Under the pieces are notes generated by a model. The model searched no databases. It saw only the letters and a list, made by a program, of their open reading frames with translations, and was not told the DNA's origin. This document shows, piece after piece, positions 884 through 6,985 of a DNA stretch of 7,154 bases. The first letter of the stretch is position 1. Each line of letters begins with the position of its first letter. This DNA comes from a virus (Duplodnaviria > Heunggongvirae > Uroviricota > Caudoviricetes), in the IMG/VR virus record IMGVR_UViG_2698536401_000005; one strand, 5' to 3'. Position numbers and translations under genes: made by a program.

Positions 884-1155
884 GTATTCGTATCGAAATT
901 GGCGAACGTTATGTTGTTACCAGTGACAGCTTTCAGTTTATTCTCCACGAGAAAAAGAGAGCGGAAAGCGGTAAAAACGCCGGTCAGGAATGGCTGGCGG
1001 TGGTTGGTTATTACCCGAAATTAAGCCAGCTCGTTTCCGGCCTGATGCATCACGATATTCTGACCGGAAGCGCAAAATCTTTTGCCGATTTAAACGCGCA
1101 GGTTGAGCAACTCAGCAGGCGTTGTTCAGAGGCTTTTGGCTCATATGGACGTTAA
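880..1155 (+). CDS. Small early-operon hypothetical protein (91 aa) immediately upstream of gene A
   Basis: ATG at 880 overlaps the upstream stop (ATGA); stop TAA at 1153-1155 overlaps the start region of the long replication ORF. No motif recognised. Confidence 0.5.
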   Translation: MSIRIEIGERYVVTSDSFQFILHEKKRAESGKNAGQEWLAVVGYYPKLSQLVSGLMHHDILTGSAKSFADLNAQVEQLSRRCSEAFGSYGR

Positions 1156-3235
1156 AGCCTCCGGGCGTTTTGTCCCTCCGTCAGCATTTGCCGCAGGCAC
1201 CGGTAAGGCGTTTACCGGTGCTTATGCATGGAACGCGCCACGCGAGGCTGTCGGGCGCGAAAGACCTCTTACACGTGACGAGATGCGTCAGGTGCAAGGT
1301 GTTTTATCCACGATTAATCGCCTGCCTTATTTTTTGCGCTCGCTGTTTACTTCACGCTATGACTACATCCGGCGCAATAAAAGCCCGGTGCACGGGTTTT
1401 ATTTCCTCACATCCACTTTTCAGCGTCGTTTATGGCCGCGCATTGAGCGCGTGAATCAGCGCCATGAAATGAACACCGACGCGTCGTTGCTGTTTCTGGC
1501 AGAGCGCGACCAGTATGCGCGCCTGCCGGGGATGAATGACAAGGAGCTGAAAAAGTTTGCCGCCCGTATCTCATCACAGCTTTTCATGATGTATGAGGAA
1601 CTCTGCGATGCCTGGGTGGATGCGCATGGCGANNNNNNNNNNNNNNNNNNNNNNNNNNNNNNNNNNNNNNNNNNNNNNNNNNNNNNNNNNNNNNNNNNNN
1701 NNNNNNNNNNNNNNNNNNNNNNNNNNNNNNNNNNNNNNNNNNNNNNNNNNNNNNNNTTTCTTAAATCGTGTGACCTTGAAAACAGGGAAACCGGCGAACG
1801 CATCGACCTTATCAGTAAGGTGATGGGCAGTATTTCTAATCCTGAAATTCGCCGGATGGAGCTGATGAACACCATTGCCGGTATTGAGCGTTACGCCGCC
1901 GCAGAGGGTGATGTGGGGATGTTTATCACGCTGACCGCGCCGTCAAAGTATCACCCGACTCGTCAGGTCAGAAAAGGCGAAAGTAAAACCGTTCAGCTTA
2001 ATCACGGCTGGAACGATGAGGCATTTAATCCAAAGGATGCGCAGCGTTATCTCTGCCGCATCTGGAGCCTGATGCGCACGGCATTCAAGGATAATGATTT
2101 ACAGGTCTACGGTTTGCGTGTCGTCGAGCCACACCACGACGGAACGCCGCACTGGCATATGATGCTTTTTTGTAATCCACGCCAGCGTAACCAGATTATC
2201 GAAATCATGCGTCGCTATGCGCTCAAAGAGGATGGTGACGAAAGAGGAGCCGCGCGAAACCGTTTTCAGGCAAAACACCTTAACCGGGGCGGTGCTGCGG
2301 GATATATCGCAAAATACATCTCAAAAAATATCGACGGCTATGCACTGGATGGTCAGCTCGATAACGATACCGGCAGGCCGCTGAAAGACACTGCAGCGGC
2401 TGTTACCGCATGGGCGTCAACGTGGCGCATCCCGCAATTTAAAACGGTTGGTCTGCCGACAATGGGGGCTTACCGTGAACTACGCAAATTGCCTCGCGGC
2501 GTCAGCATTGCTGATGAGTTTGACGAGCGCGTCGAGGCTGCACGCGCCGCTGCAGACAGTGGTGATTTTGCGTTGTATATCAGCGCGCAGGGCGGGGCAA
2601 ATGTCCCGCGCGATTGTCAGACTGTCAGGGTCGCCCGTAGCCCGTCGGATGACGTTAACGAGTACGAGGAAGAAGTCGAGAGAGTGGTCGGCATTTACGC
2701 GCCGCATCTCGGCGCGCGTCATATTCATATCACCAGAACGACGGACTGGCGCATTGTGCCGAAAGTGCCGGTCGTTGAGCCTTTGACTTTAAAAAGCGGC
2801 ATCGCCGCGCCTCGGAGTCCTGTCAATAACTGTGGAAAGCTCACCGGCGGTAATACTTCGTTACCGGCTCCCACGCCTTCTGAACACGCCGCAGCCGTGC
2901 TTAATCTGGCTGATGACGGTGTTATCGAATGGAATGACCCGGATGTCGTGAGGGCGCTCAGGGGCGCATTAAAACACGGGCTGAGAACGCCAAATCGTCA
3001 ACAAAGAAACGGAAGCCCGTTAAAACCGCATGAAATTGCACCATCGGCCAGACTGAGCCGGTCTGAACGATTGCAAATCACCCGTATCCGCGTTGACCTT
3101 GCTCAGAACGGTATCAGGCCGCAGCGATGGGAGCTTGAGGCGCTGGCGCGTGGCGCGACCGTAAATTATGACGGGAAAAAATTCACGTATCCGGTCGCTG
3201 ATGAGTGGCCGGGATTCTGGCATCAATTTGAGTAA
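1145..3235 (+). CDS. A: Rolling-circle replication initiation endonuclease, P2 gpA family (HUH superfamily); interrupted by an N-run
   Basis: Long ORF with an H-W-H (HUH) metal-binding motif at nt 2150-2158 (GTPHWHMMLF) and a paired-tyrosine motif YIAKYISK (Y at 2303-2305 and 2315-2317), the Y-x3-Y arrangement of phiX174/P2 A-type initiators. First ATG is at 1145; the ORF track's start at 1103 is a TTG. Stop TAA at 3233-3235. The frame is preserved across the N-run. Confidence 0.88.
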   Translation: MDVKASGRFVPPSAFAAGTGKAFTGAYAWNAPREAVGRERPLTRDEMRQVQGVLSTINRLPYFLRSLFTSRYDYIRRNKSPVHGFYFLTSTFQRRLWPRIERVNQRHEMNTDASLLFLAERDQYARLPGMNDKELKKFAARISSQLFMMYEELCDAWVDAHGXXXXXXXXXXXXXXXXXXXXXXXXXXXXXXXXXXXXXXXXXXFLKSCDLENRETGERIDLISKVMGSISNPEIRRMELMNTIAGIERYAAAEGDVGMFITLTAPSKYHPTRQVRKGESKTVQLNHGWNDEAFNPKDAQRYLCRIWSLMRTAFKDNDLQVYGLRVVEPHHDGTPHWHMMLFCNPRQRNQIIEIMRRYALKEDGDERGAARNRFQAKHLNRGGAAGYIAKYISKNIDGYALDGQLDNDTGRPLKDTAAAVTAWASTWRIPQFKTVGLPTMGAYRELRKLPRGVSIADEFDERVEAARAAADSGDFALYISAQGGANVPRDCQTVRVARSPSDDVNEYEEEVERVVGIYAPHLGARHIHITRTTDWRIVPKVPVVEPLTLKSGIAAPRSPVNNCGKLTGGNTSLPAPTPSEHAAAVLNLADDGVIEWNDPDVVRALRGALKHGLRTPNRQQRNGSPLKPHEIAPSARLSRSERLQITRIRVDLAQNGIRPQRWELEALARGATVNYDGKKFTYPVADEWPGFWHQFE
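1633..1756. other. Run of 124 N (masked or unsequenced bases) inside gene A
   Basis: Literal n characters in the sequence. The A reading frame stays open and in register on both sides. Confidence 0.99.
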
Positions 3236-3325
3236 TGATCTCATCTATACAGTATTAAGCAGTTTTGACTGTAATTGATTGTTTTTTATATGGTTGCATG
3301 CATTAAATCTACGTCAATATCATTA

Positions 3326-3334
3326 TGTTATAAT
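3326..3334 (+). promoter_or_regulatory. Candidate extended -10 promoter element (TGtTATAAT) for the cargo genes
   Basis: TG at 3326-3327 and a perfect TATAAT at 3329-3334, in a very AT-rich intergenic stretch (3236-3362) about 30 nt upstream of the DUF2158-like gene's ATG. A TTGACT hexamer also lies at 3265-3270, possibly part of a second promoter. Sequence pattern only. Confidence 0.4.
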
Positions 3335-3362
3335 GCATTACTTAAAAATGTTGGAGACAAAA

Positions 3363-3554
3363 ATGTTAAAGCCTGCAGATGTTGTTTGTTTGAAAAGCGG
3401 TGGATTTAAAATGACTGTATCTGACTCTACTGAGACTCATGCTAAATGTATTTGGCATGATAAAGAAGGAGTTTTGCACGAGGAGTCATTCTCCATTGAT
3501 TTACTGGAAATAGCAGAGAGTAAAAGTGGTATGCTGTGTCGTCCACGTAAGTGA
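3363..3554 (+). CDS. Small protein (63 aa) resembling the DUF2158/YodC-like family
   Basis: GGAG at 3352-3355 sits 7 nt upstream of ATG 3363. The N-terminal pattern 'KPADVVCLKSGGFKMTV' resembles the conserved G-D-x-V-x-LKSGGP-x-MTV signature I recall for DUF2158 proteins. The ORF track's start at 3279 lacks an RBS and is probably too far upstream. Confidence 0.55.
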   Translation: MLKPADVVCLKSGGFKMTVSDSTETHAKCIWHDKEGVLHEESFSIDLLEIAESKSGMLCRPRK

Positions 3555-3581: not shown

Positions 3582-4262
3582 ATGAAACAATACAGCGAAT
3601 TAGAAAACAATGTTAAGAGATTCATTGTTGAGCATGAAAAAGGGATTTCTATTGATGATATTCATCATAAGTTCCGGATGAAGGATGGTCAGAATCGCAA
3701 GATGGCAGATTATCTTATTGATAATAAAAAGATAATTTTGGAGATGAAAAGTCTTTTTTCTGACAGGGTCAAGAATGTCAATGATAAATTGAATGAGTTG
3801 GTTAAAACTGATAGTTGGCTTGCAAAAAACTGGCATGGTGCTATTCATTTAGAAGAGTTGATAAAAAGACACCCAGACTCAAAGCGATTTAGAAATGATA
3901 TAATGAACTTTGCTTATGAAAATATTAAAACAAAGGTAGTTAAAGAAGCTAATAAGCAAATAAATGCAACAAAGGATGTTTTGGGTTTAAATGACTCGAT
4001 TGGCGGATTGATTTTGTTAAATGATAATGTCTTTTCACATGAGTTTAATTATTTGTCAGATGAAATATTATATTTGCTAGGCACAAAGAGATATTCGAGT
4101 GTTGAGTTTGTGGTTTATATTGCAAAATTGATTGATAAACAGGTTGATGTTTGTGTGCTACTTGACAGTCAATCTAAAAATAAAAATTATATTGAATGGT
4201 ATATGAATAATGTTTTTTTGTTGAACTGGGCGTCTTTTAATAAATATGCAATAAAGATGTAG
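3582..4262 (+). CDS. Unrecognised 226-aa protein, AT-rich cargo gene (candidate defence-associated)
   Basis: ATG at 3582 with GGGGGAAAG just upstream; lies 27 nt after the DUF2158-like gene, so probably co-transcribed. Very low GC and Lys/Asn/Ile-rich composition unlike the phage backbone. No catalytic motif recognised. Confidence 0.6.
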   Translation: MKQYSELENNVKRFIVEHEKGISIDDIHHKFRMKDGQNRKMADYLIDNKKIILEMKSLFSDRVKNVNDKLNELVKTDSWLAKNWHGAIHLEELIKRHPDSKRFRNDIMNFAYENIKTKVVKEANKQINATKDVLGLNDSIGGLILLNDNVFSHEFNYLSDEILYLLGTKRYSSVEFVVYIAKLIDKQVDVCVLLDSQSKNKNYIEWYMNNVFLLNWASFNKYAIKM

Positions 4263-4582: not shown

Positions 4583-5524
4583 TTAAGTTAATTTTAATGA
4601 ATGGTACTCTCGTGAGTTGACCGAAGATTTGAGATAACCGCAATCATTAACCGACAGTATTGCCGCTAATAGGCGACAAACGAGTTTCTGCATTTGCAGT
4701 AATATATCGTTACCATATTGATTGTTGTTAACACTGGAAAAACCAAGTGGTTGGCCAAAAAAAATAGCCTCATGAAAATTATCATTGCGGATGCCAGAAA
4801 TGTTTTTTTTGCCTGATACCCATGTGGGGATTGATAACCCATAAATTCTGCACATCCACTTTAATCGCTTGGAATGATTTGGCTGGGTTTTATCAGGAGC
4901 CTTGTCATGCTCAGCCCACGATAAAGCAAAGCAACCATCAAGTGCCATGTAAAGGTACTGGAATTTTTCAAAAGGAAGGTATTGTGGGTTTTGAGATAAG
5001 AATAGCGCATGCACCACTGCCGCAATTCTTTTGGGGGAGTGCGCATCCTTTTGTTTGTTAGTTATATAATTAAGAGCCAGTTCTATGACTTCTTTTTCAG
5101 AGCATCCAACGAGAATAAAATCGGTTAACTTAGTGGGCTTGATAGTGGTTGCATCAAGAAAACCAGCGTCAGTGGTTGTCAATCTTATACCCTTGAAAAA
5201 AGAGAGGCACCACACAACAAAGTTGAGAGTTTCTAACGAGGATGTGTTTTTTAATTTTAGTGTGTGCGTTTTGGGCATGCCGAATACTCGGTAACTATAA
5301 GGCATTGTGCATGAGTCACCATTAAGGTTATATACCTTTCGATTCCCAGGGTATATCCAACCATTAACAACGTTTTTATCATTGTTAATACGTTCCACTT
5401 TCTCAATAAGACCGGGTAAAGTACGCAAAGAAAATTGTTCAGTCTCAATGTTAACTTCTACTGGATAGTATCCAAACTCCGAAATAATCTCATTTGGTTG
5501 CTGTTCGTCAACTTCGCCTTGCAT
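4583..5524 (-). CDS. Unrecognised 313-aa protein with a C-terminal R-N-x3-H (HEPN-like) motif; candidate abortive-infection/defence effector
   Basis: ATG at 5524-5522 (minus strand) preceded by GGAGAAAG; stop at 4585-4583. AT-rich like the other cargo genes. Residues R246-N-D-N-F-H251 (nt 4772-4789) fit the HEPN RNase signature R-[N/Q/H]-x3-H within a predicted helical C-terminal half. The family call rests on this single motif plus context. Confidence 0.6.
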   Translation of the reverse strand: MQGEVDEQQPNEIISEFGYYPVEVNIETEQFSLRTLPGLIEKVERINNDKNVVNGWIYPGNRKVYNLNGDSCTMPYSYRVFGMPKTHTLKLKNTSSLETLNFVVWCLSFFKGIRLTTTDAGFLDATTIKPTKLTDFILVGCSEKEVIELALNYITNKQKDAHSPKRIAAVVHALFLSQNPQYLPFEKFQYLYMALDGCFALSWAEHDKAPDKTQPNHSKRLKWMCRIYGLSIPTWVSGKKNISGIRNDNFHEAIFFGQPLGFSSVNNNQYGNDILLQMQKLVCRLLAAILSVNDCGYLKSSVNSREYHSLKLT

Positions 5525-5950: not shown

Positions 5951-6985
5951 TCAGCCGTTGTCAGTGTCCAGTGAGTAGTTTTTAAAGCGGATGACCTCCT
6001 GACCGAGCCAGCCGTTTATTTCCCGAATCCTGTCCTGTAACGGGATAAGCTCATTGCGGACAAAGACCTTTGCCACTTTCTCAATATCACCCAGCGACCC
6101 GACGTTCTCCGGCTTGCCGCCCATCAACTGAAAGGGGATGCGGTGCGCGTCCAGCAGGTCAGCGGCGCTGGCTTTTTTGATATTAAAAAAATCGTCCTTC
6201 GTCGCCACTTCACTGAGCGGGATAATTTTAATGCCGTCGGCTTTCCCCTGTGGTGCATAGAGAAACAGATTTTTAAAGTTGTTGCGGCCTTTCGACTTCA
6301 CCATGTTTTCGCGGAGCATTTCGATATCGTTGCGATCCTGCACGGCATCAGTGACGTACATGATGTATCCGGCATGTGCGCCGTTTTCGTAATACTTGCG
6401 GCGGAACAGCGTGGCCGACTCATTCAGCCAGGCAGAGTTAAGGGCGCTGAGATATTCCGGCAGGCCGTACAGCTCCTGATTAATATCCGGCTCCAGCAGG
6501 TGAAACACGGAGCCGGGCGCGAAGGCTGTCGGCTCGTTGAAGGACGGCACCCACCAGTAAATATCCTCTTCCACACCACGGCGGGTATATTTTTCCGGTG
6601 AGGTTTCCAGTCTGATGACCTTACCGGTGGTGCTGTAACGCTTTTCCAGAAATGCATTACCAAATACCAGAAAATCCAGCACAAAGCGGCTGAAATCCTG
6701 CTGGGAAAGCCATGGATGCGGGATAAATGTCGAGGCCAGAATATTACGTTTGACGTAAATCGGTGAGCTGTGATGCACGGCAGCACGCAGGCTTTTTGCC
6801 AGACCGGTAAAGCTGACCGGCGGCTCATACCATCTGCCGTTACTGATGCATTCGACGTAATCCAGAATGTCACGGCGGTCGAGCACCGGCACCGGCTCAC
6901 CAAAGGTGAATGCCTCCATTTTCGGGGCGCTGGCAGTCATTTTTTTTGCCGCAGGTTGCGGTGTTTTCCCTTTTTTCTTGCTCAT
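5951..6985 (-). CDS. Q: Phage portal protein, P2 gpQ family (344 aa)
   Basis: 344-aa ORF, the same length as P2 gpQ, positioned next to cos and immediately downstream of the terminase gene on the same strand. Its start ATG (6985-6983) overlaps the upstream stop as TGATG. Identification is by recollection of the family and by synteny. Confidence 0.85.
   Translation of the reverse strand: MSKKKGKTPQPAAKKMTASAPKMEAFTFGEPVPVLDRRDILDYVECISNGRWYEPPVSFTGLAKSLRAAVHHSSPIYVKRNILASTFIPHPWLSQQDFSRFVLDFLVFGNAFLEKRYSTTGKVIRLETSPEKYTRRGVEEDIYWWVPSFNEPTAFAPGSVFHLLEPDINQELYGLPEYLSALNSAWLNESATLFRRKYYENGAHAGYIMYVTDAVQDRNDIEMLRENMVKSKGRNNFKNLFLYAPQGKADGIKIIPLSEVATKDDFFNIKKASAADLLDAHRIPFQLMGGKPENVGSLGDIEKVAKVFVRNELIPLQDRIREINGWLGQEVIRFKNYSLDTDNG

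Follow-up and report, generated by a model that had tools for sequence, protein, structure and literature searches.

Evidence for a P2-type replication origin embedded in the 3' part of the initiator gene A of a P2-like prophage

The P2 origin and its counterpart in gene A

The gpA protein of bacteriophage P2 nicks the DNA at a replication origin (ori) situated within its own open reading frame (ORF) and binds to the 5' end (PMC8537503). The experimentally determined origin lies at nucleotide (nt) 29,892 of P2, and the sequence of the nick site is conserved among Peduovirinae (PMC8537503), and a Vibrio phage whose Rep shares no more than 33% identity with P2 A has been reported to carry a near-identical ori inside its rep gene (PMC3986222). 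The P2 origin and its conservation in P2-like phages are therefore published, known biology. Here we describe the corresponding element in a 7,154-nt stretch of the Caudoviricetes record IMGVR_UViG_2698536401_000005, referred to in its full length as the window, whose own positions are used throughout. With high confidence, we assign the interval 2768-2845 as a P2-type rolling-circle replication origin embedded in the 3' fifth of gene A. An original prediction, made from the letters alone, had suggested that such an ori may lie within the coding sequence at 2780-2900, and the location of the annotated P2 nick site together with the suppression of synonymous change bore this out.

In the P2 record AF063097, nt 29892, within gene A, is annotated as a rep_origin with the label 'nick site at ori', and this position corresponds in an ungapped alignment to window position 2814 (L001:2815), within CGCCGCGCCTCGGAGTCCTGTCAATAAC and inside the interval that had been proposed. 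The window equals P2 at every base from 2784 to 2847, and only two substitutions (2767 and 2783) separate them within 2740-2839. The 23-nt nick core, CTCG^GAGTCCTGTCAATAACTGT (2811-2833, plus strand), which encodes PRSPVNNC, is identical to that of P2 and fits the consensus CTYGGAnnnnTGnCArTAACTGT described below. In the record of phage 186 the rep_origin at nt 28576, 'located by similarity with P2', falls on the next G of the same motif and, because the P2 and 186 annotations can be taken together, the nick is most likely placed in TCG^GAG, between G2814 and G2815. By analogy with phiX174, the strand that is cut is probably the coding strand; our literature search, which did not include the primary mapping papers (Liu and Haggard-Ljungquist, 1994; Liu et al., 1993), yielded neither the identity of the nicked strand nor any mention of a hairpin at the P2 ori. 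A direct repeat formed by CGCCGCATCTCGG (2700-2712) and CGCCGCGCCTCGG (2803-2815) was also considered as a second nick-like site and was rejected, as the third-codon positions of 2700-2712 vary normally.

The gene that contains this site (1145-3235, plus strand, ATG at 1145) encodes the replication initiator gpA, an HUH-type rolling-circle endonuclease (Pfam PF05840, Phage_GPA, E 2.4e-81). Its translation contains the HUH metal-binding motif HWHMM (2150-2164), inside the PF05840 match, and the two-tyrosine active-site motif YIAKY (2303-2317), which corresponds to Y450 and Y454 of a full-length homologue of 761 amino acids (aa). Two active-site tyrosines have been assigned to motif C of P2 A (Odegrip and Haggard-Ljungquist, 2001, as cited in PMC3986222). 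The site thus lies inside an initiator gene of the Phage_GPA family with both catalytic motifs.

Comparison with described systems places the locus closest to P2, with which it shares the homologous position of the ori, complete identity of the hairpin and the 23-nt core, the same PF05840 family and the same genome context, although the downstream cargo differs (neither tin nor old is present) and a run of N interrupts gene A in the window. Phage 186 shares the core and its codon phase (TCTCG^GAGTTCTGTCAATAACTGT) and has a GC-rich hairpin directly 5' of the core, but this hairpin is GGGCGC-TTCT-GCGCCC, the spacer measures 1 nt rather than 2 nt, there is no A/T tract, and no homology was detected between the 83-aa tail encoded after its ori and the 141-aa tail of the P2 type. 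In phiX174, as in P2, the origin is inside the gene of the initiator itself, a two-tyrosine HUH protein that nicks at G4305^A4306, and CAACTTG^ATATTAATAACAC / CAACTTG^ATATTAATAAC appears by eye to share the CTYG^ and AATAAC elements with the P2 core. In phiX174, however, AATAAC follows the nick at a distance of 5 nt, against 10 nt in P2, and phiX174 is a single-stranded DNA (ssDNA) phage with its origin in the first third of gene A, whereas that of P2 is near the 3' end. More generally, HUH-Rep replicons such as those with plasmid double-strand origins (dso) and the CRESS-DNA viruses also place a small hairpin, variable in sequence and constant in pairing, beside a short invariant nick sequence; many of them are nicked within the loop of the hairpin and have an intergenic origin, while the element described here is translated and its nick follows the stem, on the 3' side, by 6 nt.

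On this basis, gpA would recognise with its two-tyrosine HUH endonuclease a composite site made of the hairpin (2796-2808) and the core (2811-2833), cut one strand between G2814 and G2815 and become covalently attached to the 5' end, and the free 3'-OH would prime leading-strand synthesis. Because the same bases are also read as codons, the DNA signal would fix the peptide, with the hairpin giving SGIAA through Gly, Ala and Ser codons and the core giving PRSPVNNC. The covarying hairpin, the upstream TTGAC repeats and the position at a domain boundary are refinements of a known ori, and the accepted picture of P2 replication is unchanged.

Synonymous constraint, the hairpin and the depth of the core

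If the interval carries a cis-acting site, nucleotide conservation should exceed protein conservation, as the original prediction had noted, and this is what was observed. Codon alignment was made for 80 IMG/VR loci encoding relatives of the C-terminal 461 aa (69-98% protein identity), and observed over expected synonymous differences were computed in sliding windows of 15 codons for 64 non-redundant gene A representatives at <97% nt identity. In the 80-locus alignment, third-codon positions were 93-100% invariant from about 2768 to 2838, except for the codons at 2786 and 2801, while flanking codons for equally conserved amino acids varied at 50-70%. The observed/expected ratio averaged 1.0 and stayed at or above 0.7 throughout 1850-3232, save for one trough of 0.05-0.15 at about 2768-2845, and 5000 column permutations never produced so low a minimum. 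This block of suppressed synonymous variation (2768-2845), which we take as the functional extent of the ori in the P2 lineage, shows that synonymous changes are not freely tolerated here and that the DNA is constrained beyond coding need. Most of the divergent relatives, 74-82% identical to the window before the ori, reached an identity of 0.86-0.94 within the ori block and 0.54-0.75 after it; for the two most divergent loci, L077 and L079, identity in the block was only 0.79 and 0.75.

Directly 5' of the core, lineage-specific GC-rich inverted repeats were found, which in the window and in P2 take the form GCGGC-ATC-GCCGC (2796-2808, plus strand, encoding (S)GIAA and ending 2 nt before the core). 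Besides that of 186 (GGGCGC-TTCT-GCGCCC), the hairpins include GCGCC-TCT-GGCGC in YenM, GCGCAC-GCA-GTGCGC in HP2 and GGGGAGC-TT-GCTCCCC in a Mannheimia phage. As stem, loop and spacer lengths vary, we used an alignment-free stem test and a count of pairs within a single geometry, after enlarging the set with loci that a core-pattern scan of IMG/VR had retrieved. Of the 94 unique sequences, 85% had a perfectly paired stem, 5 bp or longer, separated from the core by 0-4 nt; shuffles reached 6% (maximum 14%), and 22 different arm pairs occurred among the 94. In the largest class of one geometry (36 sequences), five of the six pairs were changed on both sides, and none of 500 shuffles reached the covariation score; this class was picked by its pairing register, so that its percentage of paired positions is inflated, a bias from which the alignment-free test is free. 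A conserved secondary structure therefore adjoins the nick sequence, as in the origin architecture of HUH-Rep rolling-circle replicons.

Compensatory changes in the stem swap the encoded residues: GCGGC/GCCGC gives G..A and GCGCC/GGCGC gives A..G, and the peptides encoded by the hairpin across lineages are as different as SGIAA, SASGA, GASAP, SARSA and GELAP. Because these compensatory changes replace amino acids, the sequence comparison indicates that it is the DNA pairing that is conserved at the hairpin and not the peptide, which follows the DNA structure. The Gly/Ala/Ser/Pro richness of the first part of SGIAAPRSPVNNCGKLTGGNTSLPAPTPSEHAAAV is explained in this way, the translated hairpin providing the Gly, Ala, Ser and Pro codons of SGIAAP. 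The segment is thus a dual-coding one in which DNA structure dictates protein sequence and compensatory stem changes appear as paired Gly/Ala swaps, which makes the odd conserved peptide a by-product rather than a functional motif.

The peptide that had drawn attention to this region, SGIAAPRSPVNNCGKLTGGNTSLPAPTPSEHAAAV, is encoded exactly at 2795-2899 on the plus strand, in the frame of gene A (aa 551-585 from the ATG at 1145). It had been described as Pro/Ala/Ser/Gly-rich, and its Pro/Ala/Ser/Gly/Thr fraction of 0.63 is indeed the highest among the 586 windows of 35 aa in gpA (mean 0.33, standard deviation (sd) 0.10). The term low-complexity agrees with this compositional bias but strictly overstates it, since the Shannon entropy (3.51 bits, against a mean of 3.71 and sd of 0.19) is undercut by 83 of the 586 windows, at about the 14th percentile; the peptide is biased rather than repetitive. 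Judged by conservation, a linker-like character applies to 2840-2870 alone, where amino acids vary, and does not fit 2795-2838, which is near-invariant in protein and DNA. Similarly, the attribution of the odd composition to DNA constraint held for the first third, SGIAAPRSPVNNC, which is hairpin and core translated, but not for the remainder, KLTGGNTSLPAPTPSEHAAAV, where protein evolution is ordinary or faster. An AlphaFold2 model of P0001, a full-length homologue that shares 97% identity with the window across the 461 aa compared, was built with an alignment of 39 sequences; it had a mean pLDDT of 42 and a pTM of 0.27, and its residues 582-640, which include the ori-encoded peptide, had no predicted secondary structure and the lowest pLDDT (22-25). 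Because the whole model is poor, the low values at 582-640 are not evidence for a linker; a sequence-profile search returned no solved structure for the gpA family.

Upstream of the hairpin and inside the suppressed block, the window carries TTGAG (2775-2779) and TTGAC (2783-2787) on the plus strand, followed by an A-tract (2791-2795), and these pentamers are a possible auxiliary recognition element. TTGAC preceded the hairpin in 21 of the 55 non-redundant relatives, compared with 2.1 in shuffles, and TTGAC-type pentamers are often present in two to four copies spaced by multiples of 3 nt, for example GTTGACGTTGACCTT. They could be Rep-binding repeats, or merely a Val-Asp peptide repeat inherited by descent, and shared ancestry could explain part of the excess. 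The functions assigned here to the hairpin and the TTGAC elements are putative.

The conservation of the core reaches much further than the P2 lineage. Rep genes of 12 annotated phages were picked by protein similarity alone (P2, YenM_201.16, SW3, PSP3, 186, P88, HP2, Burkholderia FUB21b, Mannheimia 1127AP1, Klebsiella phi14.1, Aeromonas A051 and the corticovirus PM2), and protein identity before the ori across these distant genes was 35-71%. In all 12, the best match to the core fell within the rep gene, read from the coding strand in one common codon phase, and preceded the stop by 40-260 codons; the consensus, drawn from 13 independent phages, is CTYGGAnnnnTGnCArTAACTGT. Where the residue is kept, the codon is fixed despite protein identities of 35-45%: AAC in 13 of 13 aligned sequences (the window, the 12 annotated phages and the unannotated Vibrio phage 919TP), TGT for 12 of 12 Cys and AAT for 11 of 11 Asn. 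With the 23-nt pattern and the GC hairpin in front of it, the origin can be located in P2-like rep genes from many genera.

Two further loci are worth recording. In gene XII of PM2 (L090, AF155037), a P2-type nick core (CCCCTTGGAGCACTGAAAATAACTGT) is in frame near the 3' end, at 3374-3403; the annotated 'cleavage site' of this gene (nt 2253/2254) was considered as the ori core and rejected, as it lies in AAGCTT and bears no resemblance. In an HP1/HP2-like rep gene of L146 (IMGVR_UViG_2888359877_000003, minus strand, about 5221-5260), the first bases of the nick core occur three times (GCGCCTTGGACTTGGACTTGGACTTGTGTCAGTAACTGT), a tandem expansion of 6 nt exactly at the predicted nick.

Weighing the origin against other readings

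Several observations weigh against the assignment of an origin or limit its detail. The exact bond and strand come from two GenBank annotations and an analogy. The hairpin has only 5 bp and the 81 nt of 2765-2845, folded as ssDNA, were no more stable than shuffles (z = 0.36); a stem of this size gives no distinct energetic signal, and it is supported by sequence comparison only. Moreover, about 10-15% of related sequences have no obvious stem, and PRSPVNNC is itself conserved, which makes some constraint at the protein level possible. The last point leads to a different explanation, in which the block is kept because gpA cannot function without the peptide ...LKSGxAAPRSPVNNC, which might for instance form a contact surface, while the DNA itself plays no part in cis. 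The amino acids of PRSPVNNC are 99-100% conserved in the P2 group, and NNC is kept in most of the distant relatives. Protein constraint leaves third positions free, however, and here they are about 100% invariant while equally conserved residues of the flanks vary at 50-70%; the residues encoded by the hairpin change freely while base pairing stays, and the annotated nick site falls in the block. We therefore regard a purely protein-level explanation as very unlikely.

Equally, the hairpin with its T-run might act as an intrinsic terminator on the minus strand against antisense transcription from the leftward cargo genes, or might structure the A mRNA, and a consensus scan did mark a terminator-like site on that strand (2808-2796 followed by TTTTTAAAGT). 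Such a role is extremely improbable in our assessment: the T-run is found only in the P2 lineage, whereas 186, PSP3, HP2, Klebsiella, Burkholderia and other phages keep the hairpin by the core without it, so that the combination of GC hairpin and T-run is not conserved among relatives, and the invariant 23-nt core 3' of the hairpin would be left unexplained. No thermodynamic signal favoured a terminator or RNA structure, Rfam 15 gave no match at the gathering threshold in the whole window, and no sigma-70-like promoter was detected in the interval. Recent homogenisation of the patch, in which P2-like prophages sharing a host would have exchanged it through recombination or gene conversion with no selection on the DNA, finds a precedent in the closely related locus L039 (IMGVR_UViG_2579778675_000004), a mosaic whose identity to the window rises from 82% before the ori to 94% beyond it and whose junction is at or near the ori, which indicates that recombination occurs nearby. 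Nonetheless, the same core recurs in a corticovirus and across genera with only 35-45% identity between their rep proteins, beyond the reach of homogenisation, and a 70-nt patch common to 64 lineages with both flanks diverging needs purifying selection, leaving this scenario next to no likelihood.

The assignment of 2768-2845 as a replication origin accommodates the nick-site annotation, the synonymous constraint and the pairing, and it shows that a reading of raw sequence was able to locate a cis-acting origin hidden in a coding region, with exact ori coordinates now given for this prophage. A further and considerably more tentative possibility is that the origin is a three-part module of phased TTGAC repeats, lineage-specific covarying hairpin and invariant core, inherited in frame from an ancestral rep gene of Peduoviridae and corticoviruses. 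In such a module the hairpin would be a specificity determinant co-evolving with each Rep, and the nick would mark, and may through nick-induced recombination create, the junction at which unrelated tails of 40-260 aa were swapped onto a conserved replicase body.

The C-terminal tail and the surroundings of gene A

The protein encoded on the two sides of the ori differs in its conservation. The 315 aa before the ori were homologous in 12 of 12 relatives (E 1e-42 or better), while the 133 aa after it (2834-3232) had a detectable match, among the 12 relatives compared, only in the P2/YenM lineage. No detectable similarity was found between the gpA tail of the window and those of 186, PSP3, HP2, P88, Klebsiella, Aeromonas, Mannheimia, Burkholderia and PM2, whose tails range from 40 to 260 aa. 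Because the body matches in all 12 relatives and the tail only in P2/YenM, these alignments place the ori at the junction between a conserved replicase body and a lineage-specific tail. The tail begins with a variable segment rich in Gly, Thr, Ser and Pro, LTGGNTSLPAPTPSE (2840-2884, plus strand), which lies outside the cis element; from 2840 onwards (LTGGNTSLPAP...) synonymous diversity is back, and the majority amino acid accounts for a fraction of 0.50-0.82 at 2840-2867.

The window corresponds to the right-hand end of a P2-like (Peduovirus) genome, and its segment 2500-3235 has 95-97% nt identity to P2 (about 96%), Wphi, L-413C and many more P2-like phages. The gene order is that of P2, with homologues of orf80-orf83 at 133-1155 followed by A, a cargo region and the portal gene Q (5951-6985, minus strand, PF04860). 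A run of 124 N (1633-1756) breaks gene A, which across this gap is 189 nt shorter than the gene of P2, the offset to the P2 locus being +188 upstream and -1 downstream. Because the shortfall and the change of offset fall across this run, they point to an assembly or masking gap of arbitrary length and not to a real deletion.

The slot between A and Q, which holds tin and old in P2 and has been described as an anti-phage hotspot (Rousset et al., 2022, PMC9122126), is filled in the window by two AT-rich ORFs at 3582-4262 (plus strand, 226 aa) and 4583-5524 (minus strand, 313 aa). Neither gave a match in Pfam or PADLOC, and they may thus represent uncharacterised defence cargo. Additionally, a small ORF at 3279-3554 (plus strand) with a match to DUF2158 (PF09926, E 1.2e-7) occupies the place of P2 orf91.

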